64,000 bases of DNA, from the IMG/VR virus record IMGVR_UViG_3300005689_000302, positions 1-64,000 of that record. One strand, written 5' to 3'. This document shows, one piece after another, positions 1-20,459 of the stretch. A program made the position numbers and the translations under genes. The notes beneath the pieces are model-generated. The model saw nothing but the letters and a program-made list of their open reading frames with translations. It was not told where the DNA came from and did not search any database. This stretch comes from a virus. Its lineage: Duplodnaviria; Caudoviricetes. Positions within the stretch are counted from its first letter, which is position 1, and each line of letters opens with the position of its first letter.

Positions 1-2
1 GG

Positions 3-104
3 GCCAGCGTTGGGGCCAGCGTTGGGGCCAGCGTTTGGGACAGCGTTTGGGACAGCGTTGGGGACAGCGTTTGGGACAGCGTTTGGGACAGCGTTGGGGA
101 CAGC
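3..104 (+). repeat. 12-bp coding tandem repeat (g[ca]cagcgtt[gt]gg), about 8.5 units, encoding [AD]SV[GW]
   Basis: Units read directly at 3, 15, 27, 39, 51, 63, 75, 87 and partial at 99. Confidence 0.95.
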
Positions 105-710
105 GGCTATGGTCAGCACGACGCCGAATGGCTCGCCTTCTACGAATATTTCCGCGATGCCTGTTCAATGGACGAAACAACGCAGAAACTCGCCGGCATG
201 TGGGAAATCGCGCAGTCCGCTGGTTGGTGGTTGCCCCACAAAAACCTTTGTTGGGTTTGCGAGCGCCCAAGGCTACTCAAGAGAAACGATCGCGTTCGGC
301 TACACTGCGAAGATGGGCCGGCTCTTGAGTATCCCGATGGCTGGCGGATTTGGGCCATTCACGGCGTCCGCGTCGACGAGCAACTCGTCATGCGTCCTGG
401 CGAGCAGGCAATCGCCCAAATCGACGGCGAAGCGAACGCGGAGATTCGCCGGATTCGGATGGAGCGTTACGGCTGGCCGCGCTACCTGCAACAGACGAAC
501 GCTCGCGTGCTCGACTATCGCCGGAACGACGTCGATGCCACCGACGAATCGCTGATGCAAGCGAAGGACGGCGCTCGCTTACTCGTCTGCGCTTGCCCTT
601 CCACCGCGCGCGTTTACGCGATGCGCGTTCCGCGCGAAATCGAAAACTGCGCGCAAGCGCAACGCTGGCTCGCCGGCGGGAAGAACCTGCGGATCGTAGG
701 AGCTTCTTAA
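3..710 (+). CDS. DUF6745-like protein, 5' partial (starts left of the window)
   Basis: Frame open from position 3: ASVGASVGASVWDSVWDSVGDSVWDSV...GYGQHDAEWLAFYEYF...WWLP...CWVCERP...LHCEDGPALEYPDGWRIWAIHGV...NAEIRRIRMERYG...CPSTARVYAMRVP. The track's 168 start is internal. Confidence 0.85.
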   Translation, partial: ASVGASVGASVWDSVWDSVGDSVWDSVWDSVGDSGYGQHDAEWLAFYEYFRDACSMDETTQKLAGMWEIAQSAGWWLPHKNLCWVCERPRLLKRNDRVRLHCEDGPALEYPDGWRIWAIHGVRVDEQLVMRPGEQAIAQIDGEANAEIRRIRMERYGWPRYLQQTNARVLDYRRNDVDATDESLMQAKDGARLLVCACPSTARVYAMRVPREIENCAQAQRWLAGGKNLRIVGAS

Positions 711-2927: not shown

Positions 2928-3391
2928 CGCCAAGCGAACGCGTACCGTGCCCTGTGTGTTTCGGGCGAAAGAAGCTCATTCCGGTTGTCGTTCGCCCGGC
3001 GCCGGGCGTCTCGCGTCAAGAAGTGGCTGAGTCGCTGGTCGATAACGACGGACTGGACTGCCCGACCTGCGGCTGCCAAGGCACGATCACCGAAGAACGC
3101 GAAAGGCGCCTGGAAATGGGCGGGAAACTCCGCGACGCTCGGCGCTCGGCGGGCATGGGCATTCGGGAATTTGCGGAAGCTCTCGGCGTTTTGCCTTCAG
3201 TCTGGAACGCCATTGAACATGGCCGCGGCCTCCCGGCCGCCGAACTGCCCGACGACATTCGCGTCTTTCTGCGCGGATGTGCTCATCGCTGCGATATGCT
3301 GCCGCTGGCGCTTCGGCCGCATGTGGAGCGATTGGCGGCGAAATACATTCCGCAAGAGTTTGTCGCCACGGATCCGAGGGCGAAGAAGTGA
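2924..3391 (+). CDS. Zn-finger plus XRE-type helix-turn-helix regulator
   Basis: CPVCFG...CPTCGCQG then LRDARRSAGMGIREFAEALGVLPSVWNAIEHG. Confidence 0.8.
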   Translation: MTPSERVPCPVCFGRKKLIPVVVRPAPGVSRQEVAESLVDNDGLDCPTCGCQGTITEERERRLEMGGKLRDARRSAGMGIREFAEALGVLPSVWNAIEHGRGLPAAELPDDIRVFLRGCAHRCDMLPLALRPHVERLAAKYIPQEFVATDPRAKK

Positions 3392-3786
3392 CGGATAACC
3401 CCATCCCGTTCGATTTGCCGGCCCGCATGTACGGCCTGAAGGTCATCGTCGAGCCGGCCCTCGAAGCCAAACAGTGGCGGCAAGTGCGCTTCCCCAAGAG
3501 CAAGAAGCGGCGGATCCGGAAGAAATGGGCGAAGCGGCGCAAGAACTGGGGGCTGGTCGACTCGGGCAAGCCGGCTATCGTGCAGACGGCCGACGCGATC
3601 TATGTCAGTCCGACGGTTTACGCGAAGCTGAAGCGCGATCCGCGGCTGGCGGAACTCAATGGCCCCGCTCGCGTGATAACGATTCCACAGTTCGATCCGC
3701 CGATGATGTCGATGACGCCACCGACGCGGGAGGAAATGCGGGCGATCATCACCAAGTTCAAATCTAATTATCCGCTCCTGCCGTGA
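3388..3786 (+). CDS. Hypothetical basic phage protein (RFPKSKKRRIRKKW motif)
   Basis: GTGA overlap start; motif recurrent in phage hypotheticals. Confidence 0.7.
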   Translation: MTDNPIPFDLPARMYGLKVIVEPALEAKQWRQVRFPKSKKRRIRKKWAKRRKNWGLVDSGKPAIVQTADAIYVSPTVYAKLKRDPRLAELNGPARVITIPQFDPPMMSMTPPTREEMRAIITKFKSNYPLLP

Positions 3787-4496
3787 ACACGCTTTGCAAC
3801 GATCAACACGCCCTCGAATCCGCCTGCCTGGCCGCCAAGGGCGACGACGCGATACCGGTTCGTCTGGCGTATGCGGATTGGCTCGAAGAGCGCGGCGATC
3901 CGCTGGCGTCAATCCTGCGGCTGGCTTGTGAGGATCTGAGTTGCCCGGCAAGTAGTCCGCCTGACTACCGAAGGGTGTGCTCGTGCGATCGTTGCATCAA
4001 GCGGGATATGCTCAAGAGCGAACGCGAGCTGTACGAACGGCAGATGATCGAAGCTGTCAATCAAGTCGCGCCGCCGTGTTGGACGTGCAGGGGCGTCGGC
4101 ATCGTTGATGCTACGCTGTTCATGCTCGATCCAATTCCACAACGCGAACCTTGCCCGCGCTGTTCGGGAACCGGTCGCCAGCGAGAATTGGCCGTCATCT
4201 GCCCACAATGCAAAGGTCATGGTCGAGTCGCCGCTAGGAAAATCGACGCGGGGAAATTCGTTGTCACGAGCGACTTTCGCAAGTGCGGAACGTGCGACGG
4301 CTACAACGTGCTGCTGTTAGTTGAAGCGCGTCCCGGCGATCTGCCGGTTGATTCGTGGGAACGATTGTATTGCCTGTCGAACCAACTCGGGGCATTCATC
4401 GAATCGCCGCTGTTGCCGCTGTGGCGCTACATGCTGCTGACGCTCGACGATCGCGCCGATCGCGTCCGCCGGGCCAACGTCGCCGGCCTGTTCTAG
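3783..4496 (+). CDS. TIGR02996-type N-terminal domain fused to DnaJ-like CxxCxGxG zinc-finger repeats
   Basis: VRLAYADWLEERGDP; CWTCRGVG, CPRCSGTG, CPQCKGHG, CGTCDG. Confidence 0.75.
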   Translation: MNTLCNDQHALESACLAAKGDDAIPVRLAYADWLEERGDPLASILRLACEDLSCPASSPPDYRRVCSCDRCIKRDMLKSERELYERQMIEAVNQVAPPCWTCRGVGIVDATLFMLDPIPQREPCPRCSGTGRQRELAVICPQCKGHGRVAARKIDAGKFVVTSDFRKCGTCDGYNVLLLVEARPGDLPVDSWERLYCLSNQLGAFIESPLLPLWRYMLLTLDDRADRVRRANVAGLF

Positions 4497-4511
4497 CGCT
4501 TCCCGCCCCTC

Positions 4512-4565
4512 CCGTCTAAACATAGACGCCCGCCCTGCGCGCTTTTCCCGGCCGGCGGGTACGGT
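4512..4565 (+). promoter_or_regulatory. Promoter copy 1: dyad CGTCTA-N4-TAGACG plus -10-like TACGGT
   Basis: 35-nt near-identity with 9619-9653; same 32-nt offset from dyad end to TAnnnT hexamer; intergenic. Confidence 0.7.
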
Positions 4566-4618
4566 GAAGGTTTGCTATTCGCCCTGACTGCCGCCGCCCG
4601 CCTGAAGGATCCCGCCCC

Positions 4619-5035
4619 ATGTCCGAAGCTCTCACCTTTGACGCTTCCTCGTTCGACGCGCAAGCCGCCGACTTCGAAGTGGCTCTCTTCGACCGCCTCA
4701 AGTTCCTAAAGAGCATGAAAGCCGCCTTCGAGAAGGCGCTCGCCGCCGAGGGCGTGCCCGCCAAAGTCGCCGCCTGGATGGACCTGCTGGCGCTGGGGGC
4801 GACCGCCACCGATTCGCCGGCCGATGACCGCGTTGTCGCGGCCGTCCGCAAGCTGCTCGCCTCGCCGCTGGCCGAAAAGCTGATCGGGATCGTTTCCGAC
4901 CTGGTCGGCGATATGCTCGCCGGCGGCGCGTCGAGCAAAAGCGTTGAAGCGCAAGCGACGGTGGAAGCCGCCGCGATTCCCTGGTCGCTGATTTTCATGA
5001 TCGCCAAGGCGATCTTCGAAGCCATTCGCTCCTAA
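4619..5035 (+). CDS. Hypothetical protein with C-terminal amphipathic/hydrophobic helix
   Basis: First ORF after promoter copy 1; ends IPWSLIFMIAKAIFEAIRS. Confidence 0.7.
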   Translation: MSEALTFDASSFDAQAADFEVALFDRLKFLKSMKAAFEKALAAEGVPAKVAAWMDLLALGATATDSPADDRVVAAVRKLLASPLAEKLIGIVSDLVGDMLAGGASSKSVEAQATVEAAAIPWSLIFMIAKAIFEAIRS

Positions 5036-5187
5036 GCAATCGCCGCTGAGGGCCGCTCCCGTGGACCTTGCATTCCTCGGGCGGCCCAAAGCGCCCGCCC
5101 GCTCTTTTCTGTGCCTGCCGCTGGCCTTGCGCCGGTCCTCGCCTCTTCTCCTTTCTCTTCTCTCCTTTCACCTCTCTCGGCGAAGCC

Positions 5188-6177
5188 GTGCCTCTCTTTC
5201 GTCTTCCGCCGTGGAAACTGACGCGCACCTACGAAACATTCTCCCAGCGGGAGCATGATTGGTGGGTCGATCAGTTCCGCGCGCCGGAAGTCTTCAAGAG
5301 GGGCCGCGGCAAGGGGATCGTGATTGCGATCCTCGATACGGGCTGCGACCTCGAGCATCCCGACCTCAAGAGTCAGATTCTCAAGGCGAAAGACTTCACC
5401 AAAAGCCCGTACGGGCCGCTCGACGTGAATAAGCACGGTACGCACGTCGCCGGCCTGGCGGCCGCTGCCGAGAACGATTTAGGCGTGCTCGGCATGGCGC
5501 CCGACGCGAAGTTATTGATTGCGAAGTGCCTCGGCGACGACGGATCGGGGTACGACGCCTGGATCGTCAATGCGATCAAGTGGGCGATTTCCGAAGGCGC
5601 CGACATTCTCTCGCTCTCGCTCGGATCGCTCGAGCCAAGCCCGCGGATTGTCGATGCGCTCCTGAAAGCGATCGCCGCCGGCCTCGATGTCGTCATGGCC
5701 GCGGGCAATGAAGGCGGCCTGGGCGTCGGCTGGCCGGCGCAAGGCGTCGTCGAAGGGATCCGCGTCGCCGCGGCCGATAAGAAAAACCGCGTGCCGGCGT
5801 TCAGCTCGAAGGGCGATCAAGTCGATGTTGCCGCGCCTGGCGTCGATCTGCTCTCCTGCCTGCCCGGCGGGAAGTGGGGTCGGATGTCGGGCACGAGCAT
5901 GGCAACGCCGATCGTGTCCGGGCTGTGCGCTTGCATCCGCTCGGCCAGCAAGAAGAAGCTCTCGCCGGCCGAAGTTAAGAAACGGATCGTCGATAGCGCG
6001 GAAGACGCCGGCGCAGCCGGGAAGGATCCGTCGTTCGGGCATGGCCTCTTGCGCCCCGATCGGGCGATGGAAGGCGACGAACCGGTCGCCGAAGGGATCG
6101 ATATTTTCGGGCTCATCAAAGCGCTGCCGATCGCCAAGGGCACGCCGGCGCCGCACGCCGGCGTCCTGCTGTACTAA
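5188..6177 (+). CDS. Subtilisin-like serine protease (family S8)
   Basis: Catalytic triad motifs IAILDTG, HGTHVAG, GTSMATP and oxyanion AAGN; GTG 5188 after a pyrimidine tract; no obvious signal peptide or propeptide. Confidence 0.93.
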   Translation: MPLFRLPPWKLTRTYETFSQREHDWWVDQFRAPEVFKRGRGKGIVIAILDTGCDLEHPDLKSQILKAKDFTKSPYGPLDVNKHGTHVAGLAAAAENDLGVLGMAPDAKLLIAKCLGDDGSGYDAWIVNAIKWAISEGADILSLSLGSLEPSPRIVDALLKAIAAGLDVVMAAGNEGGLGVGWPAQGVVEGIRVAAADKKNRVPAFSSKGDQVDVAAPGVDLLSCLPGGKWGRMSGTSMATPIVSGLCACIRSASKKKLSPAEVKKRIVDSAEDAGAAGKDPSFGHGLLRPDRAMEGDEPVAEGIDIFGLIKALPIAKGTPAPHAGVLLY

Positions 6178-6181
6178 ATCC

Positions 6182-7768
6182 GTGAAGCCTTTGACCGCTG
6201 CTTTCCTCACCGCGATTCTCGCCCTGAGCGCCGCCGGCCTGCCTGGCGAGCTGCCGGGCGACTTGCCGGAAGCGTTCGGGCCCGCTGAGGCGGTCGCCGC
6301 GGCGGCGATCGACGCCGGGGCGATAGGGCCGATCGAAGCGCCGTTTTTCACCTATTACTGGACGCTCGATCCGTCCGACGACTTCCACGCCGCTTTCGCC
6401 TACGCGCTGAATACGGCCTGCTCGCACTCACCGAACCTCTACCGCCACGATCGGCTCGCCGACGGCCGGCTGATTCGCGTCGATTGGCGCCGCCTGGCGC
6501 CGAAGGCGGAAGATTATGCCCGCCTGCGCAAGCTGCTCGAAGGGCTGGCGCTGGTCGATCCGTATTTCCATACGATCGGCCGGCGGAAGGTGGCGCCGTA
6601 TAAAGCGAGCGACGGGCAGACGTATGATTTTGTTGTTGGAAGCGACGTCGCGCTGCATAGCGGGCCGGACAAGCATTTGCTTTTGGCGACGCTCACCGGG
6701 AGCGCCGCGCCGATCCTGCGGGCCGATTGGTTCATCACGAAAATCCTGAGCACGCTCGACGGCGGCCAGTACTACAAGCTGCGCGGGATCGTTGCTCGGC
6801 CGGAGAAGGGGACGGCGGAAGAAGCATTTCACGCCAGCCTCGGCGCCGATCCGAAGCAAGCGGCGGCTCTGCGCAGCGACGAACGGCTGGCGCAGTGGTT
6901 TTCGCATGTGACGGGCAAGCCGCGGGCGATCGAGTTTTTCTACGCGACGAACAGCCGGCCTAGCCTGGGGCCTTCGCTGCTGACGATCACGCGCGACTAT
7001 TTCGACGGGCCGATCGACGGCCGCCGGCATGTGCTCAAGAACCTTTTGAGCTACCAGTTCGACGGTAGCGAGCAAATCGGAAGTCTGCCGAACGGGATGC
7101 TGGCCTTTGCGCTCTTCGACGCCGCCGGCGGCCTGGTCGATGTGGCGCCGCAAAACCTCGTGACCGATCGCACCGTGCCGGCGCCGCATACGGCGAACCT
7201 GCAGCCGGCAATTAGCTGCATCCGCTGCCACGCCAGCGAAGAGGGCTGGAAGGCGGCGCAGAACGATATTGCGCTGGTGACGGGCGGGAAGTTCGCGGTC
7301 GATATTTTCGACGACGAATCTTCGCCCGAGGATGTCGCCGATACGCTCGATCGCCTCGCCGGCCTGTACGGCGGCGACATCGCCGAGCCGCTGCGGGTAG
7401 CGCGAACGACGCACGCGAAAGCGGTCTTCGCGCTCACCGGGAAAGAGCCGGCGCCGGTCATGGAATATGTCGGCGCGACATACAACCGCTATGCGTTCGA
7501 AGCCATCACGCCGCGGATTGCCTGCGCCGACGCGGGCTATGCGGTCAGCGATGAGAAGGCGGTGGCGCTGTTCAATCAGCTCTGCCCGCCGCTGCCGGCT
7601 AATAGCGCTGGCGTTTCGCCGGAATCGATCACGATCGCCAGCCTGCGGGCCTGGACGAAAGAAAAACCGATCTGGATCCCGCGCAGCGATTGGGAACAAG
7701 AGTTTTCTGATTTTGCGCTGCGCGTGCGAACCGCCGCCAACAACCGTTTAGCCGAAGGGGCCAACTAA
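6182..7768 (+). CDS. Secreted c-type cytochrome-like protein (single CxxCH)
   Basis: GTG 6182; signal peptide MKPLTAAFLTAILALSAAG; SCIRCH at 7217-7231 preceded by LPNGMLAFALFDAAG...AP. Confidence 0.72.
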   Translation: MKPLTAAFLTAILALSAAGLPGELPGDLPEAFGPAEAVAAAAIDAGAIGPIEAPFFTYYWTLDPSDDFHAAFAYALNTACSHSPNLYRHDRLADGRLIRVDWRRLAPKAEDYARLRKLLEGLALVDPYFHTIGRRKVAPYKASDGQTYDFVVGSDVALHSGPDKHLLLATLTGSAAPILRADWFITKILSTLDGGQYYKLRGIVARPEKGTAEEAFHASLGADPKQAAALRSDERLAQWFSHVTGKPRAIEFFYATNSRPSLGPSLLTITRDYFDGPIDGRRHVLKNLLSYQFDGSEQIGSLPNGMLAFALFDAAGGLVDVAPQNLVTDRTVPAPHTANLQPAISCIRCHASEEGWKAAQNDIALVTGGKFAVDIFDDESSPEDVADTLDRLAGLYGGDIAEPLRVARTTHAKAVFALTGKEPAPVMEYVGATYNRYAFEAITPRIACADAGYAVSDEKAVALFNQLCPPLPANSAGVSPESITIASLRAWTKEKPIWIPRSDWEQEFSDFALRVRTAANNRLAEGAN

Positions 7769-8562
7769 TGCTTCCGCCGATCCGTCTTTTGCTCGTCTCG
7801 CTCGCCCTCGTCGCGACCATCAACGCCCCGCTCTTCGCCAGCGGCCGGCGCGTCTGCTATCCGTGCGTCCAGCGGCACGTCGTCGCGCAGCCGGCGGCGA
7901 AAGTCGTCGCGCAAGGGGCGCCGTCGCCGAACGTGACGACGACGAGCACCGACAACTCGATCACTTATCAGTACAACATCCAGTACGGCCAACTGCCGGC
8001 GGCGCAAGGCGAGACGCTCTACGGCTACCGGGCGGCGACGTACTCGAATACCGACCTGGGCGTCGATAACTACATCTCGCAGCGGCTGGTCGCCGACGCG
8101 TCGGCGATTCAAAGCAAGGTTCTCGCCGGCCAGCAAGCCAACGCAGCGGCGGCGGCGGAAATCGCCAAGCTGCAAGTGAAGGCCTCGGTTATCTCCCAAG
8201 CGCTGGCGGCGCTCGATGAACCGGCGACGGCGGCGACAAGCTCGCAAGCGACGTTCACGCAAGAGATTCATGCGGGCGCCTCGGCCAGTGTGGGCGGGGC
8301 TGCGGGCGGCGATACGGCGCTGGCGCAGCGGGTGACGAATCTCGTCAACGCGAAGTGCGTTTCGTGCCATGGCGCGACGCGGCAAGCGGGCGGCCTCGAT
8401 CTGAGCGACCTCTCGAAAGTCGATGGGGCCTCGATTCTGGCTCGAGTGACGAGCGCCGATCCGACGAAGCGGATGCCGCTCGGCCCTGGCGATGCGCCGG
8501 GCACGCCGCTGAGCGTGGGGGAACTGAGCTCGCTGTTTTCGGCCGTTGGGCCGGTGGAATAA
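7768..8562 (+). CDS. Secreted protein with C-terminal Planctomycete cytochrome c-like domain
   Basis: Signal peptide; KCVSCHGATRQAGGLDLS...ILARVTSADPTKRMP (CxxCH at 8356-8370, distal Met), resembling PSCyt1/PF07635. Confidence 0.8.
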   Translation: MLPPIRLLLVSLALVATINAPLFASGRRVCYPCVQRHVVAQPAAKVVAQGAPSPNVTTTSTDNSITYQYNIQYGQLPAAQGETLYGYRAATYSNTDLGVDNYISQRLVADASAIQSKVLAGQQANAAAAAEIAKLQVKASVISQALAALDEPATAATSSQATFTQEIHAGASASVGGAAGGDTALAQRVTNLVNAKCVSCHGATRQAGGLDLSDLSKVDGASILARVTSADPTKRMPLGPGDAPGTPLSVGELSSLFSAVGPVE

Positions 8563-8578
8563 CGGTGGAATAACGCGC

Positions 8579-8767
8579 ATGTGGCTGGCGGCGATTCTCG
8601 CTTATCTGGCGATCGGGCTGTTTCTCGGCGGCGCCTACTGGCGCGAAGTCGGGAACGTCGGCGCCTGGCGGTGGGTCGCCGTGCCGTTTGGCCTGTTCTG
8701 GCCGCTGTTCGTGATGCTGGGCGTGGTGATGATCGCCTGGGTTTGGGTTGTGATGGACGACTCTTAA
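8579..8767 (+). CDS. Small 2-TM membrane protein (holin-like size)
   Basis: MWLAAILAYLAIGLFLGGAYW...FGLFWPLFVMLGVVMIAWVWVV. Confidence 0.75.
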   Translation: MWLAAILAYLAIGLFLGGAYWREVGNVGAWRWVAVPFGLFWPLFVMLGVVMIAWVWVVMDDS

Positions 8768-8776
8768 AGGGTTGGC

Positions 8777-8986
8777 ATGGTTCCAACATTGTGTGGCATT
8801 TTGGGGGCGATCATCACTCCTGCCGCGATGGTGCGCGTGCTGTTCTCGATGAGCAAGCGCAATCCAGATAAGACGACGAGCGGCGCGTATGCGGCGGTGG
8901 CGGGGATGCTGATGATCCCTGCGGCAATCCTCGGTGCGATTGCTGGCGTCCTGCTTGGGTTATTGATTTCGGGGGCTGCTGGTTAA
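8777..8986 (+). CDS. Small 2-TM membrane protein
   Basis: Two hydrophobic segments separated by KRNPDK. Confidence 0.75.
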   Translation: MVPTLCGILGAIITPAAMVRVLFSMSKRNPDKTTSGAYAAVAGMLMIPAAILGAIAGVLLGLLISGAAG

Positions 8987-9022
8987 GGCGGTCATTTCAC
9001 TTTTCACAATGGGGCGTGTGCT

Positions 9023-9550
9023 ATGAAAAACGTGTTTGTGCTGGTGGCGGCGATTTCCGCTTTTGCTTGTTTCGCCGAGGACGCGTCGGCGCAGATCTTC
9101 GCTCGAAACCGCGATGTGAACGTCAACGCCAACGGCGTGCGAGTGGAAGTCGATCGTCGCCTGTTCGGTCGCGATCAAGTGCGCGTCAACGGCGTGCGCG
9201 TCGATAATCGCCGCAATGCCAACCGCGGTCGCGATATTAACGTGGCGGTGGTCGATCCGGTCGCGGCGGCGCGGGCGAACGCCGCGTTCGCTCCGCGGGC
9301 AACGCTTGTGTTCTCTAATGGGCATCGGGCGATCGTGCCGACGGCGGCGGTTGGGCGCTTCAACGCTTTCGGCGTCTTCACCAAGCAAGACGCTTTTGGA
9401 AACGTCTTCGAAATCGATAGCTTTGGCAACGCTCGCTTCGTGGGGAACAACCTGAACCGCGGCTTCCAAGGAACCGTCTTCCGGTCGTCTTCCTTCGGCG
9501 TGCCGTTTGCATCCTCGGCGGTGTTTGTGCCGCGGGGCGCTTGCCATTAG
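9023..9550 (+). CDS. Secreted N/R/V-rich repeat protein
   Basis: Signal peptide MKNVFVLVAAISAFACFAEDASA; repeated VNVNANGVRV, VRVNGVRVD and DxFGN motifs. Confidence 0.75.
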   Translation: MKNVFVLVAAISAFACFAEDASAQIFARNRDVNVNANGVRVEVDRRLFGRDQVRVNGVRVDNRRNANRGRDINVAVVDPVAAARANAAFAPRATLVFSNGHRAIVPTAAVGRFNAFGVFTKQDAFGNVFEIDSFGNARFVGNNLNRGFQGTVFRSSSFGVPFASSAVFVPRGACH

Positions 9551-9565
9551 CGCTTATCGCCGGCT

Positions 9566-9620
9566 TTCTGATCGCCTGCCGATCACCTGCTGATCGCTTT
9601 CTGGTCGCCTTCTGAGCACC
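9566..9620 (+). repeat. Five phased 11-bp degenerate direct repeats (consensus t[tg]ctgatcgcc)
   Basis: ttctgatcgcc, tgccgatcacc, tgctgatcgct, ttctggtcgcc, ttctgagcacc read directly; intergenic. Confidence 0.8.
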
Positions 9621-9672
9621 GTCTAAACGTAGACGCCCGCCTTGCGCGCTTTTCTTCGCTGGCGATTACCGT
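9619..9672 (+). promoter_or_regulatory. Promoter copy 2: dyad CGTCTA-N4-TAGACG plus -10-like TACCGT
   Basis: ccgtctaaacgtagacgcccgccttgcgcgctttt versus 4512 ccgtctaaacatagacgcccgccctgcgcgctttt (2 mismatches). Confidence 0.7.
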
Positions 9673-9780
9673 GAACTCTTCTCGCTGGCGCTGCTTGCGC
9701 GTCCCCTCGCCTTCCCGGCGAACGGGGCGCGCGGCCGCTGGCTCAAGACTTTTCTCCCTTCCTTCTGCCCCGCCTCGCCG

Positions 9781-10188
9781 ATGATCGCCTTCGGTCCTTT
9801 GCTCGGCGACTCGCCGCCGCCTGCGCACCATGAGCGCTATGTGCTCTCGCCGGCGGAATGCGATTCGGTGTGGGCGCGGTACATTGGTTTCCTCAAGCTC
9901 TCCGGCCTCTGCGGTCCGCGCCGCGAGCGCGACCTCCATCGGATCTTGCACCCGCTGCGGGGCGTCGTGATTCGCGCCGACCTAGAAAGCGGCCTGGCCG
10001 AACAGTGGCGATTCAAGACGTTCCACGAAGCGGCCGCCTTTGGTCTGGAAGCGTACTTTCGGCCAACGCCGGCGGAAAGCCGCTGCGATTGGCCGCCCGG
10101 AAGTCATGGCAAGCTCGACGTGCTGGCCGATCGGCTGTCACGCGGGCAGGATTTGTTCCACCCCCTCGATCAAGCCGTCGAGCGCTAG
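9781..10188 (+). CDS. Hypothetical protein
   Basis: ATG after a pyrimidine tract downstream of promoter copy 2. Confidence 0.65.
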   Translation: MIAFGPLLGDSPPPAHHERYVLSPAECDSVWARYIGFLKLSGLCGPRRERDLHRILHPLRGVVIRADLESGLAEQWRFKTFHEAAAFGLEAYFRPTPAESRCDWPPGSHGKLDVLADRLSRGQDLFHPLDQAVER

Positions 10189-10271
10189 AGCGCCTGCGGC
10201 CGCAATCGATCGATGACGAATCGCTCGGCGGCCTAACCAACAATCGGGCGGCGCTGCTCGACGGCGTGAAG

Positions 10272-10424
10272 ATGCTTGTTGTCCGCCTGTGGAATCGCCT
10301 GTGGAATCGCCTCCGTCGCCAACTGCGAAACGAGATAGATGCCGGCGACGTGTGGGCGGTTGTCGTCTCGGCCGCTGTGGCGATCGCGATCTTGGTTTTC
10401 CTGAAGCTCAAGGGAATGTTTTGA
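10272..10424 (+). CDS. Small TM protein with RLWN duplication
   Basis: MLVVRLWNRLWNRLRRQ...VWAVVVSAAVAIAILVFLKLKGMF; 12-bp duplication at 10284-10307; start uncertain. Confidence 0.5.
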   Translation: MLVVRLWNRLWNRLRRQLRNEIDAGDVWAVVVSAAVAIAILVFLKLKGMF

Positions 10425-10681
10425 TGAGCGACGGAGCGCCGCGATCGCTGCCGTGCTATGGCGGGCCGTTCGACGGCGCGATAGCGACGTTTACTGATCC
10501 GGGCCCGCTGGCCGGCGATCAACGGGTAACCGTTGTCGTTCGGGGTCGCGATGTGCCCGAATGGCTGCGCCGCGAAAGCTACCTCAGTCCAGCCGGAAAT
10601 CCGAAGCTGCGGGCCTGGTACAAACTGGCCACCGATCCGAAAAGCGGCCGGCAACGCCTTGTTTACCTCGCACCCGTATAG
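10424..10681 (+). CDS. Hypothetical protein (CYGGPFDG motif)
   Basis: TGATG overlap start; GGPxDG motif common in small phage proteins. Confidence 0.7.
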   Translation: MSDGAPRSLPCYGGPFDGAIATFTDPGPLAGDQRVTVVVRGRDVPEWLRRESYLSPAGNPKLRAWYKLATDPKSGRQRLVYLAPV

Positions 10682-10691
10682 GCGATCGCGC

Positions 10692-11120
10692 ATGACGATT
10701 CGGCCGCTGCGCGTCGTGGCGCATGGCGAAACCTGGCTAGTGACGTGGTCGCGGGAAAGCGGCTCGATCAGCGCTTCGCCCGAGCTGGCGCCGTTCGTCG
10801 TCGTCGCGCGAAGGTATGTCGCCGGCCGCTGTCGCCAGTGGGCCCGCTGCCGCTCGCTCGACCTCGGCCTGGCCGTGGCGGCGATGCTCGAGCGGCTGCC
10901 CCGCGTGCCGTTGCTAAGAGCCGATCAGCGAGACGAGCTGCCGCACGTCTCGCGGCAAAAGCTCGAAGCCGACGCGCTCGCCGGTCAGCTTCCGGACATT
11001 GCCGCCTTGAAGAAACGCCGCCCGAACGGCTACTACATGACGCCCGCGCCGCCGACGCCGTACCTGGTGCCGCGCTACGAGCGGCCGGCCCGCCGTTTCC
11101 GGCCGCCTGACGATTATTGA
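10692..11120 (+). CDS. Hypothetical protein
   Basis: ATG 10692 in a co-oriented run. Confidence 0.6.
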   Translation: MTIRPLRVVAHGETWLVTWSRESGSISASPELAPFVVVARRYVAGRCRQWARCRSLDLGLAVAAMLERLPRVPLLRADQRDELPHVSRQKLEADALAGQLPDIAALKKRRPNGYYMTPAPPTPYLVPRYERPARRFRPPDDY

Positions 11121-11174
11121 TATTTCCCCTTTTTTCCTCGCTTCTCCCCGCCGCATGGAAAGCATGATGGACCG

Positions 11175-11549
11175 ATGCCGCCCGCCTTTGCCGCCCGCGC
11201 CAACAACAACAGCAACAACGAGACGAACGCCGATCGCCGTTTAGACGCCGCCTCGAAGTGGGTCGGCCATGTGCTTTCGGGGGTCGCGCTGGCCGCGGTC
11301 TGCGCGCTGGCGCTGTTTCTCGTTGAAACCAAAGTTCGCATCGCCGAATTGCAGAAGGAAAACGAAGCCAATCACACGGCGGCGGCCATCCAATGGCAGG
11401 CGGTTGTCGAGCTGAAAGCGGAAATCAAGGCCGATTTGAAGGCGTTTGGCGACAAGCTCGACGACGTGCGCGACCGCCTGCCGCCTAAGTACAGCAACCG
11501 TAATGAGTTGCGAAAAGAGGCGTCAGATACGCAAGCGGTGGTAAGATAG
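11175..11549 (+). CDS. Single-TM plus coiled-coil protein (holin/XhlA-like architecture)
   Basis: WVGHVLSGVALAAVCALALFLV followed by a heptad-rich segment. Confidence 0.6.
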   Translation: MPPAFAARANNNSNNETNADRRLDAASKWVGHVLSGVALAAVCALALFLVETKVRIAELQKENEANHTAAAIQWQAVVELKAEIKADLKAFGDKLDDVRDRLPPKYSNRNELRKEASDTQAVVR

Positions 11550-11600
11550 TCGGCAAATATGCGGTAGGGCAGGACCGCAAAGGTAGCGGGATCACTTCCA

Positions 11601-11653
11601 GGCGGGACGTGGGAGCGCGCTTGACGCCAGCGCCTCCCAAGTGTCGTCCCGCC
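11601..11653 (+). other. Long intergenic stem-loop
   Basis: ggcgggacg/cgtcccgcc and tgggagcgc/gcgcctccca arms. Confidence 0.6.
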
Positions 11654-11669
11654 GCTCTTAGGGTCTTCG

Positions 11670-11939
11670 ATGGCGTCGAGAAACACAAGCACGCGTTCGC
11701 GTGCAGCGCGCGTCAAGCTGGCGGGGCAGGGCCAGAAGCGGATCCGCAAGCAGCCGACGGTTATCGGCCTCCGCGTGCGGCCGGTCTGCGAATCGTGCGG
11801 CTGTTTGATGCGCTCGCGCAAAGTCACCAAGCGCGCCACCCACTATTACTGCCTGACCGCCGGCTGTGACGGGAAAGCGAAGAAGCTCCTGCGCGCTGAA
11901 CCGCCGGCAATCGATCCTCCCCGAGCGACTTCCGCATGA
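11670..11939 (+). CDS. C4 zinc-finger protein (Ogr/Delta-like spacing)
   Basis: PVCESCGCLMRSRKVTKRATHYYCLTAGC; basic N-terminus. Confidence 0.55.
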   Translation: MASRNTSTRSRAARVKLAGQGQKRIRKQPTVIGLRVRPVCESCGCLMRSRKVTKRATHYYCLTAGCDGKAKKLLRAEPPAIDPPRATSA

Positions 11940-12151
11940 CGCGCATCCTCTCGATCGCCGAAGCCGGCCGGCCAGTCCTCGGGCTCCACCTTCCGAATGG
12001 CTACTACTCCGGGGTGTGGGGCGGCTATGTCGTGAAGGCGACGATCGACGGCCGCTACTTGGAAATGCGTACCGAAGACGGGATCCGCTGCCCGCGAGCC
12101 GACTGCACGGTGTTTGTGCGCGGCGATCAAGTGCATGTGGAATGTGATTGA
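11936..12151 (+). CDS. Hypothetical protein
   Basis: ATGA overlap; coupled operon. Confidence 0.7.
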   Translation: MTRILSIAEAGRPVLGLHLPNGYYSGVWGGYVVKATIDGRYLEMRTEDGIRCPRADCTVFVRGDQVHVECD

Positions 12152-17160: not shown

Positions 17161-17850
17161 ATGGCGAAGAAGAAGCCGGCGAAGAAGAAGCCGGCGAAGA
17201 AGCAAAACAAACGGGCTGCGCCGAGCAAGGCCGCCAAACCGGCGCCGCGGAAGGCGGCCGCGCCCGCGAAGTCGGCGGCTCCGGCGCCGCCTGTGACGGC
17301 GGCGATGCTTTCCGGCCCGCCCGAGGCGTTCCACGAGATTCGCGAAATCAATCGGCGGTTGTTCCTGAAAGCCTACGCCGACCGCGGGACGATCAAACGG
17401 GCGGCGATGATCGCCGGCGTCGATCGTACGCTGCATTATCACTGGCTGCGCGACGACGGCTACAAAGCGGCTTTCGGCGAAGCGCAGCGGATGTATCGCG
17501 AGAAGCTCGAAGAAGAAGCCGATCGCCGGGCGGTCGATGGCGTCCAGCGATTGAAGTTTTTCAAGGGGGAGCTGATCCTCGTCCCGTGCGAGCCGGGCGA
17601 CCCGCTCGGCCGCTGCCTCGGCAAGACGGCGACTGGCGATGAAGTGTGGGCCAAGCCGTACATCGAGCACGAATATAGCGACAACCTGCTGATGTTCCGC
17701 CTGAAGCGCCTCGATCCGCGCTACAAAGACCGGATCGACGTCAAAACCAAACACAAAACAACGATCAAGCTCGAGCCGGCGCAAGCGCCGGGCGGCTTGC
17801 TGGAAGCGTTCCGGAAGCGATTACTCGACAATAAGCCGTGCCGCAAGTAA
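17161..17850 (+). CDS. terS: Terminase small subunit
   Basis: FLKAYADRGTIKRAAMIAGVDRTLHYHW HTH, LEEEADRRAVDG, EYSDNLLMFRLK; directly upstream of TerL; K/A/P-rich N-terminal tail. Confidence 0.85.
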   Translation: MAKKKPAKKKPAKKQNKRAAPSKAAKPAPRKAAAPAKSAAPAPPVTAAMLSGPPEAFHEIREINRRLFLKAYADRGTIKRAAMIAGVDRTLHYHWLRDDGYKAAFGEAQRMYREKLEEEADRRAVDGVQRLKFFKGELILVPCEPGDPLGRCLGKTATGDEVWAKPYIEHEYSDNLLMFRLKRLDPRYKDRIDVKTKHKTTIKLEPAQAPGGLLEAFRKRLLDNKPCRK

Positions 17851-20459
17851 AGGGAAAGTCGGCCGATCGGATCTTCCACGAGTGGATCAGCTCGGCGGCC
17901 GACGCCCAACCCGACTGGCGCCAGCATCAACGGCTACGCGAGACGCTCACGCCGGCGATGCTCGAGCGGTTCGACGCCGCCGGCGATCCGACGATCGCCC
18001 GTTTCGTGCATCTGCTGTTCACGCATCCGTACTACGCCTTCGAGCCGCGGGCGGACAATCTCGCCGACGGCGACGAGCAAGAATCGTTTGTCAACTCGCG
18101 ATCGCTGATTACGGTCGGGATCGGCGGCAACGGTTCGGGGAAAACGTATTGCGGCGCGCAGCGCTGCGTGAAGTTCCTCGCCGAACAACAAGCGCCGGTC
18201 CGCGATACGCCGTTTTGGATCATTGCCAACACCTTCGAACAGGCTTGCAACTCGACCTGGTTCCAGAAGCTGCGCACGATCCTGCCCGAGTGGTGGATCG
18301 ATTGGGAGCGCGTCGTGTGGCGCAACTCGAAGCGCGGCTGGCCGAAGTCGGTACCGCTGATTCCCGACGAACAGGGGCGCAACTGGCTGCTCGAGTGGAA
18401 AAGCTACGAAGAAGGCCGCGAAGCGATGCAAGCGACCGCCATCGGCGGCGCCTGGTTTACGGAAAACTTCCCCTGGGAAGTCTTTCAAGAAGTGCTGCGC
18501 GGCTGCCGCGAATGGATGCTGCCCGGCGCCGTGACGATGGAGTTAACCCCGCTCGATCCCGAGAAGTCGGCGCCGCTGCAAGACGCTTATGAATCGTGGT
18601 CGGCCGGCGATGAAAAGTTCAAGAATTGGTCGTTTCACTTCCTGAGCACGGTCGCCGCCCGCGACGCTGGCCACGTCAACGCCGACTGGTATCAAGCCTG
18701 GGTGGCGTCGATCAGCGACGAAATGCTCGCCACGCGCACCCGCGGGGCGTTCGCCAACTACGAAGGCTGCATCTATCAATCGTTCAACCCGAAGATCCAC
18801 CTGCTCGACGACATCACCCCGCCGGTCGATGAGTTCGGCCGGCCGACGGTCTATCACCGCCGGGCGATCGACTGGGGCGCCAGCGAAGAGCATCCGTTTG
18901 TCGTGCTGTGGGGCTACAAGGACGCGATCGGCTGCTGGTGGATTTACGACGAATATTGGAGCACCGCGCAAAACCTCACTTGGTCCGAGCACGTCGAACG
19001 GATCGCCAAGCGACACGAGCTCCACGACTGGGCGCGATGGGATGACGACGATCCCCATTACGGATCGACCTACGCCGACCCGAGCCGGCCCGATTTGATG
19101 CGCGAGTTTGCGATGCGCGGCTTGCCGATCACGGCCGCCCGCAACGCTGTTTATGAAGGGATCGAAGCGGTTCGCGCCTGCCTGAAGATCCACCCGCAAA
19201 CCGAAGAGCCGGGGCTGTTCATCGATCGCCACCGCTGCCCGAAGCTCGCCCGGCAAATGAGCACCTACCGCTGGGAGCGCTCGACCGGCGCCGGCGCCAA
19301 CCCGAAAGCGGCCCGCCCGGTGCCGCTCAAGAGAGACGATGACTGCTGCTTTCCTGCGGGTACGCTCGTCGCGACTCCCGAGGGGGCGACGGAAATTGAA
19401 AGCCTGCGCGCAGGCGACGCGGTGCTAACGCATCTGGGCGAAAGCCGAGTCGCTGTTGCCGAAGAAACAGGAGAAGAAGAGCTTTATCGGATTACTTTGA
19501 TCGACGGCCGTGTTATAGAATGTACCGCAACGCATCCGTTCGCAACATCAGACGGAGGCTTCGTTGCCGCCTGCGAACTGACGCCGGGGACATTCATTGA
19601 CAGCCTTCCATCATGCAAGTCCGCGAAGAGATCAACCGAAACGGAAAGCCTCGCGAAGTCATCGAATACGCCGGGCACGTCTGGTATCGATACCCGACTT
19701 GCCGTTCATCACCGGCAAGAACGTATTTCCGGCGATGCGAACGACGGGGCGGTCAGTCGGCGAAGATCCGCACGTTCTGGCTTCACAAGCAAGTCTGGAT
19801 CGACAACTTCGGAAAGATTCCCCGGGGCAGGGTTGTCCACCACAAAGATGAGAACCCAGCCAATAACAGAATCGACAACCTCGAGTTGCTCACTCCATCC
19901 GAGCATTCGAAGCGCCATCGAGCAAACATCGAAAAGGCGATTGACGCCGCTCGTCAGTGGCATGGAAGCAAGGTCGGAAAAGAATGGCACAAGCAGCATG
20001 GACTGCAAACCTGGAACGGTCGCACTTCGAAACTCAAGACCTGCGAATACTGCCGAAAGAGATTCGGGACGAAGGACCGCAAGCGCGCAACGCGATTTTG
20101 CAGCGATCAATGCCGAGCCTATTCGCGACGCCATCGCGGCGACGACAACGAAACCAGAACATGCGAATGGTGCGGGTCTGAGTTCGTCGTCAACCGTTTC
20201 GCAAAGACGACATGCTGCTCGAAAAAATGTGGTTGCCGTGCAAGTTGGGCGCGTGGAGCGCGCAAACCGAAGGGCAAGAGTCTTCAATCTGGCGACTGAC
20301 GACGGAACCTACTTCGCCAACGGCGTTCTCGTTTCCAACTGCGACGCCCTCCGCTACATGATTTACTCCGACGTCGGCAACCGCGCTCAAGGGATCCTCG
20401 CCCGCCGCGAGACGCCCCAAGCGCGGCCCGGCGTCCGCTTCAAACGCGTTTCTCGATAG
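17838..20459 (+). CDS. terL: Terminase large subunit (intein-containing)
   Basis: Walker A GGNGSGKT; nuclease motifs AIDWG, YADPS and DDC/CDALRY; spliced product reads KRDDDCCDALRY. Confidence 0.95.
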   Translation: MPQVKGKSADRIFHEWISSAADAQPDWRQHQRLRETLTPAMLERFDAAGDPTIARFVHLLFTHPYYAFEPRADNLADGDEQESFVNSRSLITVGIGGNGSGKTYCGAQRCVKFLAEQQAPVRDTPFWIIANTFEQACNSTWFQKLRTILPEWWIDWERVVWRNSKRGWPKSVPLIPDEQGRNWLLEWKSYEEGREAMQATAIGGAWFTENFPWEVFQEVLRGCREWMLPGAVTMELTPLDPEKSAPLQDAYESWSAGDEKFKNWSFHFLSTVAARDAGHVNADWYQAWVASISDEMLATRTRGAFANYEGCIYQSFNPKIHLLDDITPPVDEFGRPTVYHRRAIDWGASEEHPFVVLWGYKDAIGCWWIYDEYWSTAQNLTWSEHVERIAKRHELHDWARWDDDDPHYGSTYADPSRPDLMREFAMRGLPITAARNAVYEGIEAVRACLKIHPQTEEPGLFIDRHRCPKLARQMSTYRWERSTGAGANPKAARPVPLKRDDDCCFPAGTLVATPEGATEIESLRAGDAVLTHLGESRVAVAEETGEEELYRITLIDGRVIECTATHPFATSDGGFVAACELTPGTFIDSLPSCKSAKRSTETESLAKSSNTPGTSGIDTRLAVHHRQERISGDANDGAVSRRRSARSGFTSKSGSTTSERFPGAGLSTTKMRTQPITESTTSSCSLHPSIRSAIEQTSKRRLTPLVSGMEARSEKNGTSSMDCKPGTVALRNSRPANTAERDSGRRTASAQRDFAAINAEPIRDAIAATTTKPEHANGAGLSSSSTVSQRRHAARKNVVAVQVGRVERANRRARVFNLATDDGTYFANGVLVSNCDALRYMIYSDVGNRAQGILARRETPQARPGVRFKRVSR
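19347..20339 (+). mobile_element. Intein, 331 aa (C1...S-N; +1 Cys)
   Basis: Block A CFPAGTLVATPEG, block B ECTATHPF, blocks F/G VFNLATDDGTYFANGVLVSN|C; penultimate Ser instead of His. Confidence 0.93.
19613..20299 (+). CDS. HNH homing endonuclease nested out-of-frame inside the intein
   Basis: LHKQVWIDNFGKIPRGRVVHHKDENPANNRIDNLELLTPSEHSKRH plus two C-terminal CxxC...CSxxC zinc ribbons; frame differs from TerL. Confidence 0.92.
   Translation: MQVREEINRNGKPREVIEYAGHVWYRYPTCRSSPARTYFRRCERRGGQSAKIRTFWLHKQVWIDNFGKIPRGRVVHHKDENPANNRIDNLELLTPSEHSKRHRANIEKAIDAARQWHGSKVGKEWHKQHGLQTWNGRTSKLKTCEYCRKRFGTKDRKRATRFCSDQCRAYSRRHRGDDNETRTCEWCGSEFVVNRFAKTTCCSKKCGCRASWARGARKPKGKSLQSGD

Follow-up and report, generated by a model that had tools for sequence, protein, structure and literature searches.

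Why would a tailed phage keep a subtilisin gene beside genes for two exported proteins with c-type haem motifs? The question is raised by a locus in a 64,000-nucleotide stretch of phage DNA, called the window below, which is the first 64 kb of the 83,203-bp IMG/VR record IMGVR_UViG_3300005689_000302 (Caudoviricetes; CheckV completeness 100%). Cytochromes of the c type have hardly figured in phage biology so far. The original prediction for this DNA had singled out positions 4619-9550 for an S8 protease, two exported CxxCH proteins, two small proteins with two transmembrane (TM) helices each and a secreted repeat protein. All of these parts are present, and their identities were right: a subtilisin-family enzyme, a PSCyt1-type cytochrome with a distal Met, a second CxxCH protein, the TM proteins and an exported basic protein. 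We find that the operon is one copy of a very widespread, previously undescribed and conserved four-part phage module made up of a protease, orfC, orfD and orfG. The genes at the locus are as follows (aa, amino acids; pI, isoelectric point; GRAVY, grand average of hydropathy).

4619..5035, + strand: orfA, 138 aa, acidic and helical, with a hydrophobic C-terminal stretch
5188..6177, + strand: S8 (subtilisin-family) protease, 329 aa from the likely start GTG 5188, in a frame open from 5068
6182..7768, + strand: orfC, 528 aa from a GTG start, with a signal peptide and a single CxxCH (C346-H350)
7768..8562, + strand: orfD, 264 aa, with a signal peptide and a single CxxCH (C197-H201)
8579..8767, + strand: small membrane protein 1, 62 aa, two hydrophobic helices and an acidic C-terminus, pI 4.6, GRAVY 1.30
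8777..8986, + strand: small membrane protein 2, 69 aa, two Gly/Ala-rich helices and a basic loop, pI 9.8, GRAVY 1.21
9023..9550, + strand: orfG, 175 aa, with a signal peptide, low-complexity and V/A/R/N/F-rich, mature pI 11.8

The gaps between consecutive genes from the S8 stop codon to orfG are 4, -1, 16, 9 and 36 nt, and this tight packing makes it very likely that the stretch from the S8 gene to orfG is read as a single transcript. The original prediction had also called the unit promoter-led. That description was not confirmed: a sigma-70 scan of positions 3000-12000 returned 0 sites; the count of terminator-like elements in the scan of the region was not above that in shuffled sequences.

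A four-part module across phages

orfC belongs to a very large family. An exhaustive profile search recovered 4149 cluster representatives at E<=1e-3, of which 1392 matched at E<=1e-30. A word-indexed search returned 117 relatives of 410-643 aa, none with a Pfam domain and all named "hypothetical protein" apart from one metaclust label, and orfC itself has no match in Pfam (E<=0.01), PHROGs, NCBIfam or PADLOC. The family occurs on 26 IMG/VR contigs of 15-408 kb and 36-71% GC, and among 185,579 species genomes on four contigs, all of them from metagenome-assembled genomes (MAGs). A profile search of metagenome contigs added 64 further loci, and a single-sequence search of metagenome contigs gave 61 pattern matches, 0 of them confirmed. 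The relatives P0002-P0006 are 68-78% identical to orfC. Among GenBank phages there was one weak match (LR756511.1, an uncultured 595-kb phage, 24% identity) and no cultured phage. Neighbours of orfC in the ESM Atlas are unnamed clusters labelled mostly Uroviricota; an Atlas lead at 0.86 pointed to planctomycete PSCyt1 proteins and was confirmed afterwards by profile search (see below).

The genes around orfC are conserved with it. Removing redundancy by the C-terminal 200 residues encoded in the orfC open reading frame (ORF) left 72 related loci. A homologue of orfD lies within 2.5 kb downstream on the same strand (hmmsearch E<1e-5) at 56 of the 62 loci that have at least 1 kb of downstream sequence, and at 45 of these 62 it is directly adjacent to orfC (<=150 nt). 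Four of the six loci lacking such a homologue are weak or truncated orfC matches. orfD is followed at 42 of 50 loci by a basic protein with a signal peptide, counted as orfG-type if it had a hydrophobic leader, a pI of at least 9.5 and less than 6% Asp+Glu and started no more than 900 nt after orfD. The 22 positional counterparts of orfG that we inspected all have a pI of 9.8-12 and almost no Asp or Glu.

A protease gene stands beside orfC at 31 of the 50 loci with at least 1 kb of upstream sequence, as found by Pfam searches of 139 ORFs from 10 loci and 117 ORFs from the others, together with tblastn and motif reading. The class of the enzyme varies: 16 are M10 proteases, 8 are S8, 2 are C1 (papain), and there is one astacin (M12), one trypsin-like enzyme and one M10 fragment; a further 2 were recognised by the metzincin motif HExxHxxGxxH alone. 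The trypsin-like gene, at locus L005, lies downstream of orfC and its product has a leader. Even between related phages the class can change: a phage whose portal protein is 52% identical to that of the phage studied here (L111, on the same contig as L009) has an M10 protease in place of the S8.

Despite this variety the proteases share a layout. When read by eye, 26 of the 29 listed module proteases lack an N-terminal hydrophobic leader, the exceptions being L024, L087 and the trypsin-like L005. Most of them, whatever their class, end in a Pro-rich linker followed by a tail of 20-30 aa with a beta-hairpin-like look. Several of the M10 enzymes have a PG_binding_1-type pro-domain, with PRCG-like cysteine-switch motifs in the pro-region; in matrix metalloproteinases, a pro-domain with a cysteine switch marks the zymogen form. 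Taken together, the module proteases look like latent enzymes stored in the cytoplasm, with a possible docking tail. That protease class is freely swapped and the layout is kept implies a partnership between proteolysis and the haem proteins, one that is met again in Planctomycetota cells beside caspase-like enzymes.

At seven loci without a recognised protease (L001, L002, L004, L032, L033, L038 and L041), a conserved ORF of 161-187 aa occupies the protease slot. The slot ORF (e.g., L002:7244-7732) is acidic and belongs to a huge-phage subgroup, and L005 has it in addition to the trypsin-like gene. It often lies beside a Tail_P2_I-type baseplate gene of 1,180-1,220 aa on the other strand. An ESM Atlas search with a 162-aa slot ORF returned unnamed clusters and weak tail-protein leads only.

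The module is kept across phages of 36-71% GC and is also found in phages of 350-408 kb that show no sign of lysogeny. It is not a stray insert, and the label of moron given to it in the original prediction finds no support. The orfC family, the four-part module and the swapping of its protease match no phage system known to us; the S8, M10 and class-I cytochrome c domains are of known kinds. A full-text literature search, judged on titles and abstracts with supplements outside its scope, gave no paper pairing a phage with PSCyt1 and none relevant on phage- or virus-encoded cytochromes, and no phage context was seen among the listed papers that mention PSCyt1 or DUF1553. We conclude that a family of thousands of diverged members, with an invariant haem motif and absent from Pfam, PHROGs and NCBIfam, is one of the core parts of a mobile phage module.

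Two observations on individual records belong here. In JGI24126J20157_1000003 (305,596 bp; L075-L078) there are four identical copies of the module, 90,794 bp apart, which suggests a concatemeric assembly of a phage of about 91 kb and matches the 90,921-bp IMG/VR record of L023. On one metagenomic phage contig the module is closely followed, at L045:3388-4050, by an anti-CBASS gene of the Acb3 type (PF25187, E 3.6e-44).

The module proteins and their cellular counterparts

The haem motif of orfC is strictly conserved. In an alignment of 38 members, C346, I347, C349 and H350 are invariant and nearly all sequences have a signal-like N-terminus; S-C-I-R-C-H is invariant in 53 of 53 non-redundant, near-full-length homologues. 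The 38-member alignment also contains invariant polar residues around the haem domain (Y197, S241, R248, T270, D272 and E297). An AlphaFold2 model of orfC has a pLDDT of 91 and a pTM of 0.89. In VIA comparisons of the whole model, the first four structures are all beta-sheet c-type cytochromes that match residues ~197-406, including the CxxCH helix: 8brk (c'-beta; Z 5.4, root-mean-square deviation 3.7 over 107 aa), 6hiu (P460; Z 5.1, 3.9 over 113 aa), 7s5o (c'-beta; Z 4.5) and 6amg (P460; Z 3.8). Residues 190-420 modelled alone (pLDDT 87) form five strands and then the helix with CxxCH (C157-H161 in domain numbering), and this domain model returns the same structures in the same order at Z 5.3, 5.2, 4.7 and 3.7, followed by 2je3 (P460) at Z 3.5.

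The central domain of orfC thus weakly resembles cytochrome P460 and cytochrome c'-beta, a family of haem proteins that bind small ligands, and we take this resemblance as the best available lead and not as membership. orfC and the known structures (6hiu, 2je3, 6amg, 8brk and 7s5o) share a beta-sheet domain followed by a helix with a single CxxCH. They differ in that the matches, at Z 3.5-5.4 and 6-14% identity, come with no sequence-family match to orfC, and in that orfC has three to four times their size and additional domains at both termini. All of the Z values lie below the tool's caution line of 8, Foldseek gave nothing at E<=1e-3 with either the full or the domain model, there is no match to the Pfam P460 family, and a profile search of solved chains returned no cytochrome at E<=10. 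The N-terminal domain was considered as a protease pro-domain or inhibitor and set aside, as its RRM-like matches (Z 2.7-3.6) are too weak.

orfD is laid out as a signal peptide, a Cys-containing N-terminus, a conserved 'VVNNLIGIPVPV'-type motif, a long helical region and a C-terminal cytochrome c domain (the export signals of orfD and its homologues were read by eye). It matches PSCyt1 (PF07635) by a small margin, at 26.8 bits against a cut-off of 22. The homologues in L004 and L005 score 25.0 and 24.2 bits; the remaining homologues in the same Pfam scan of neighbouring ORFs have no PSCyt1 match at E<=1e-4, and NCBIfam and PADLOC have nothing for orfD. In an alignment of 20 homologues C197, C200, H201 and P237 are invariant and M236 is present in at least 90%. 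The family profile finds the actinobacterial QcrC (E 4.8e-7), cytochrome c6 (6e-4) and Kuenenia c-552 (7.6e-4) among solved chains, with matches that span CxxCH...MP and align M236-P237 with the MP of QcrC. The call of a PSCyt1-like protein with a distal Met was therefore well founded: judged from these alignments, orfD ends in a genuine class-I (PSCyt1-type) cytochrome c domain that has a predicted His/Met pair. With the class-I cytochromes it shares about 80 C-terminal residues that contain CxxCH and a conserved Met-Pro. In contrast to PSCyt1 in its usual cellular architecture, where it is N-terminal in DUF1549/DUF1553 proteins, the domain in orfD is C-terminal in a phage protein of 250-400 aa and follows a Cys-rich N-terminus and a long helical region. 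The orfD stop codon lies within an exact 11-nt tandem duplication (CGGTGGAATAA twice, window 8551-8572), so that a shifted copy of the stop context follows directly; this looks like a recent slippage event.

Cellular relatives indicate that the two haem proteins belong together. A search of 401 Planctomycetota genomes with the orfC profile found matches in 10. One of these is a phage-like contig of a Pirellulaceae MAG, and the other nine are cellular and match mainly orfC positions 161-473. The cellular proteins, of 594-952 aa, begin with a signal peptide and contain CxxCH twice, at about 40-70 and 432-451. In seven distinct cellular proteins the orfD profile matches the region of the first motif (~21-138) and the orfC profile matches downstream of it. 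By these profile matches, orfC and orfD are the split form of one exported Planctomycetota di-haem protein, and their fusion in one cellular polypeptide argues that orfC and orfD work together (the Rosetta-stone argument). Prediction of a complex between orfC (26-528) and orfD (25-264) scored 0.00 in two runs in which the fold of the partner was uncertain, and is evidence neither way.

The neighbours of the cellular genes encode WD40-Peptidase_C14, TPR-CHAT and M48-TPR proteins, extracytoplasmic function (ECF) sigma factors and HEAT-repeat proteins; among them, the caspase and M48 proteins carry a signal peptide or an anchor at the N-terminus. These protease neighbours suggest that the pairing of the di-haem unit with proteases predates the phage module and extends beyond it. 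One homologue (L108:6779-9637) consists of a Ser/Thr kinase, a TM helix, PSCyt1 and an orfC-like part, with its CxxCH motifs at 417 and 792; its predicted architecture shows that the di-haem unit can serve as an extracytoplasmic input domain. The cellular proteins are like the phage pair in having both haem domains by the orfD and orfC profiles, in being exported and in adjoining protease genes. They differ in that the haem domains are fused in cells and split in phages, in that the cellular proteases (C14, CHAT and M48) have WD40 or TPR arrays and their own signal peptides or anchors, and in their setting among kinase and ECF-sigma genes. The cellular loci L104-L108 (genomes G215, G198, G051 and G308), which combine the di-haem protein with WD40-caspase, TPR-CHAT, M48-TPR, DUF4384, ECF sigma and receptor-type Ser/Thr kinase genes, look like an undescribed envelope signalling or death system in their own right.

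The S8 protease of this phage is intact. It matches PF00082 at 191.4 bits (cut-off 21.8; E 2.8e-56), a six-frame search recovers it at 5308-6045, and it matches phrog_3677 at E 1.3e-64; NCBIfam and PADLOC gave sub-threshold generic matches only. The catalytic residues are kept (D50 in DTG, H83 in HGTH and S237 in GTSMA, with the oxyanion N174 in NEG, all numbered from GTG 5188). With this start the protein has no signal peptide, as the original prediction had claimed, and no I9 pro-domain, PF00082 being the only Pfam match. We prefer GTG 5188 because the homologues start just before a common 'LPP' motif: in 7 of 9 S8 homologues linked to the module the N-terminus begins at this motif and contains no signal peptide. 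A start at TTG 5068 would add a 40-residue extension that is, by eye, partly hydrophobic; the absence of a leader was judged from hydrophobicity and from the starts of the homologues.

The closest solved relatives of the enzyme are intracellular subtilisins (ISPs): 7xr8 (E 6e-57), 7y6m and 2x8j. ISPs have no leader and are inhibited by an N-terminal LIPY/F pro-peptide until calcium-dependent processing and activation (PMC6220982). 'FRLPPW' of the phage protein aligns with 'IRLIPF' of 7xr8, the position of this pro-peptide. The phage motif itself reads L-P-P-W and that of the homologues LPP[FIVWD], set against the [LVI]-[IFLV]-P-[YFH] pattern given for ISPs in the same paper (PMC6220982). The phage S8 thus has the fold and intact triad of the Bacillus and Planococcus enzymes, their length of about 330 aa, their lack of a signal peptide and of I9, and a short N-terminal segment that aligns with their inhibitory pro-peptide. 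Unlike them it is encoded by a phage, has an L-P-P-[WFIVD] motif and carries an extra C-terminal linker and tail, here a short tail after an acidic and proline-containing stretch. It also differs in always adjoining exported haem proteins and in that related modules can have an M10, M12 or C1 enzyme in its place.

The repeats that the original prediction saw in orfG are degenerate VRV-type motifs, read by eye and unscored; orfG has no match in NCBIfam or PADLOC. The helices of the 62- and 69-aa proteins were assigned by inspection, and both proteins are of holin size.

What the module might do

The original prediction had offered two ideas for the locus, a protease-based lysis or envelope-remodelling unit and a periplasmic redox or sensing device, and had noted that no muralytic endolysin was recognised in the window. 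Extending the search to the rest of the genome gave the same answer. No lysis family was found when about 130 ORFs of the complete 83-kb genome were scanned with Pfam and PHROG, and in six-frame searches of this genome and four further module-bearing records (among them phages of 354 kb and 408 kb that are rated 98-100% complete) 0 of 5 records matched any of nine families of peptidoglycan hydrolases: Phage_lysozyme, Amidase_2, SLT, Peptidase_M15_4, GH19, GH108, M23, NlpC/P60 and GH25. The controls for GH19 and GH108 were silent, so those two negatives say little; the PF00082 control found the two expected S8 genes. In a wider set of 22 module-bearing records (completeness of at least 90% for six), Phage_lysozyme, Amidase_2 and SLT were found in none, and M23 gave one weak sub-threshold match.

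With these results in hand, we tentatively read the operon as encoding an envelope-directed, haem-linked proteolysis module that acts after the inner membrane has been breached and serves envelope breaching or egress; we regard this as possible and short of probable. On this reading orfC, orfD and orfG would be placed in the periplasm during infection, where the host's haem-attachment machinery would load orfC and orfD, and the protease would be kept inactive in the cytoplasm. A late breach of the inner membrane, for which the two small 2-TM proteins would be candidates in this phage, might then bring the protease to its periplasmic partners or targets. The protease would degrade envelope proteins, with the haem pair as its redox- or ligand-sensitive partner, and the cationic orfG could attack anionic membrane or wall components. 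Three of the products, orfC, orfD and orfG, are predicted to leave the cytoplasm by the Sec route and the protease to stay behind, although their genes keep close company in phages of very different kinds; the simplest occasion for the parts to meet would be the lysis stage. Egress also fits with the lack of a recognisable muralytic enzyme, with the two holin-sized proteins and with the secreted polycation.

The likeness to a canonical lysis cassette is partial. In both, a degradative enzyme without signal peptide is predicted to wait in the cytoplasm, genes for small 2-TM proteins stand in the operon and an accessory protein is exported or cationic (compare a spanin or a cationic disruptin); no other lysin is recognisable in the genome of this phage. 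On the other hand, the enzyme is a protease and not muralytic, there is no match to a holin or spanin family, no known lysis system has anything like the two haem proteins, and the position of the module varies between phages. The lysis or envelope-remodelling idea gains some support from the lack of a muralytic domain and from the proteases, which look like zymogens of the cytoplasm and in this resemble canonical endolysins; it loses the argument from placement. The original prediction had reasoned that the unit lies upstream of the packaging genes, where lysis cassettes often sit; elsewhere the module adjoins baseplate, replication or nucleotide-metabolism genes.

Besides the shortfalls of the orfC fold match given above, several results weigh against proteolytic egress. 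No explanation is at hand for what haem groups would contribute to envelope breakdown, and covalent haem on orfC and orfD is something that we infer from their motifs. The genomic position of the module is variable, and in other phages the module lies outside lysis cassettes, beside baseplate, tail-fibre, replication and nucleotide-metabolism genes. No protease was recognised at 19 of the 50 loci, where the scan of the loci beyond the first ten took in 117 of 234 candidate neighbouring ORFs (173-1199 aa). The two small 2-TM proteins have no match in Pfam, PHROG, NCBIfam or PADLOC and none to a holin family, and they were not found between orfD and orfG at the 44 other loci inspected. The absence counts for endolysins cover module-bearing phages only, and the fast search used may miss divergent lysins. 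One match labelled "endolysin" (phrog_938) does exist in this genome, within the portal-cargo protein at residues 1374-1534, where it coincides with Pfam InPase. Lastly, the signalling and caspase contexts of the cellular homologues point to sensing and not to lysis.

This last point leads to the likeliest of the rivals, that orfC and orfD form a periplasmic haem sensor or regulator that binds a gas or reports redox state and tunes the timing of lysis or the choice between lysis and lysogeny, with the protease as its output and no direct breaking of the envelope. The kinase-TM-PSCyt1-orfC-like protein of L108 has just such a di-haem unit in an extracytoplasmic position, ECF sigma factor genes lie near the L105 and L108 homologues, the nearest fold to orfC is that of a family known for binding small ligands, many polar residues around the orfC haem domain are invariant, and this phage has an integrase. 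However, no membrane-spanning segment ties the phage proteins to the cytoplasm, their partner proteases are degradative enzymes of a broad type, from five classes, and not dedicated regulators, signalling offers no obvious task for the conserved polycationic orfG, and the module is present in the 350-408 kb phages without sign of lysogeny. We consider a sensor doubtful on this balance. The periplasmic redox or sensing idea of the original prediction likewise gains some support, from the cellular fusion of both haem domains, once as the extracytoplasmic part of a Ser/Thr kinase. The same cellular loci could be read in another way, with the phage pair as a mimic or hijacker of a host envelope death or defence pathway of the caspase/CHAT kind, the di-haem copies acting as decoys or activators and the phage protease removing host components. 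Cellular homologues do adjoin exported WD40-caspase, TPR-CHAT and M48 proteins, and conflict systems typically have such architectures; copies of host immune components are a frequent find in phages, and the Acb3 gene of L045 lies just downstream of the module. We think such mimicry quite unlikely, as the cellular form was found in 9 of 400 other sampled Planctomycetota genomes and the phage family is far larger, the cellular proteins match the phage orfC profile strongly over positions 161-473 only, and the module supplies a protease of its own, of classes unlike those of the host.

Two further explanations would break up the module. If orfC and orfD were auxiliary respiratory or detoxifying cytochromes, handling NO or hydroxylamine or shuttling electrons to sustain the energy supply of the host, then the protease and orfG would be mere co-transcribed neighbours. 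orfD does contain a bona fide class-I cytochrome c domain, orfC resembles P460 and c'-beta, DNA of this genome recurs in the bioreactor sludge metagenomes of one study, and tetrapyrrole synthesis genes are known in phages (PMC11480375). But the links to a protease (31 of 50 loci, five catalytic classes) and to orfG (42 of 50) are too regular for chance and the module encodes no reductase, oxidase or quinol-linked partner, which leaves this explanation improbable. Least likely, to our minds, is that the S8 enzyme is a virion-related protease, for head maturation or as packaged cargo, that lies next to orfC incidentally and has a capsid-targeting signal in its C-terminal tail. The common linker-plus-tail C-terminus could be a targeting tag, and in several phages the module lies beside structural genes; against this, the S8 gene is 16 kb from the portal-scaffold-capsid block, M10, astacin and papain enzymes are not known as prohead proteases, and the adjacency of protease and orfC holds across unrelated phage backbones.

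Returning to haem-linked proteolysis at egress, we can phrase it in a more specific form, which we offer as speculation and consider unlikely as it stands. A whole class of phages, probably with Planctomycetota and comparable bacteria as hosts, would have given up peptidoglycan endolysins. A dormant, haem-gated protease of any catalytic class would escape from the cytoplasm through a lesion in the membrane and dock by its C-terminal tail on a complex of the two cytochromes already in place in the periplasm. The complex would sense or relay the redox collapse of the dying cell, and together with the secreted polycation the protease would dismantle a protein-rich envelope. If the lysis reading is true, the module would represent a new exit route for phages and a source of new envelope-active enzymes for hosts with protein-rich walls; if sensing is true, it would be a phage-borne periplasmic haem sensor. 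On either reading, a sizeable block of viral dark matter gains a name and a setting in which it can be tested.

Flanking elements and genome setting

The operon is bracketed by a pair of direct repeats and lies upstream of the packaging genes. The features around it are as follows.

4512..4568, + strand: upstream copy of a 57-nt direct repeat, containing the small palindrome GTCTA-N4-TAGAC
9619..9675, + strand: downstream copy of the repeat, 84% identical to 4512-4568
17161-17850: small terminase
17838-20459: large terminase with an intein (Hint/intein domains PF13403 and PF14890)
21964-29100: Mu-type portal fused to a cargo of ~1,850 aa

The 57-nt repeat has just these two copies in the 83,203-bp genome, two matches occurred in 0 of 100 shuffles, and its core has no match in the viral_contigs collection. 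The pair may be a regulatory element or a cassette boundary. Between the upstream copy and the S8 gene lies orfA, which has no match in Pfam, PHROG, NCBIfam or PADLOC and no relatives beside the module elsewhere by tblastn in 30 related loci. The spacer of about 150 nt between orfA and the S8 start (window 5036-5187) is strikingly pyrimidine-rich, its coding strand showing runs of CT/TC; it could act in regulation or translation, or belong to an alternative upstream start at TTG 5068.

Nearly all genes are on the + strand. The small terminase gene (17161) follows 7.6 kb downstream of the module unit, after about a dozen ORFs, and scaffold, adaptor and sheath-like genes were also recognised. 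The last 19 kb of the genome contain genes for an integrase, CsrA, DUF5131, a DNA methylase and DUF1643; no tRNA genes were found in the 64-kb window. The same 12-nt tandem repeat (GGGNCAGCGTTN) occupies window positions 1-120 and the last ~60 bases of the genome (L031 about 19140-19203), which suggests a terminal repeat or a circularly closed assembly, though IMG/VR classes the record as linear.

A small protein with one N-terminal TM helix is encoded at window 11175-11549, 1.6 kb downstream of the module. Comparable one-TM small proteins lie 1-2 kb downstream of it in other phages (L009:11322-11720, L021:11812-12012, L056:7946-8329, L063:5725-6132, L018:9280-9693 and L016:11351-11734). By eye they are mostly coiled-coil-like after the TM helix, which gives them a spanin- or holin-like shape; they have no family match. 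The genome also encodes two proteins that have DnaJ-type CXXCXGXG zinc-finger repeats and no J domain, one directly upstream of the operon (window 3783-4496) and one at L031:15789-16325.

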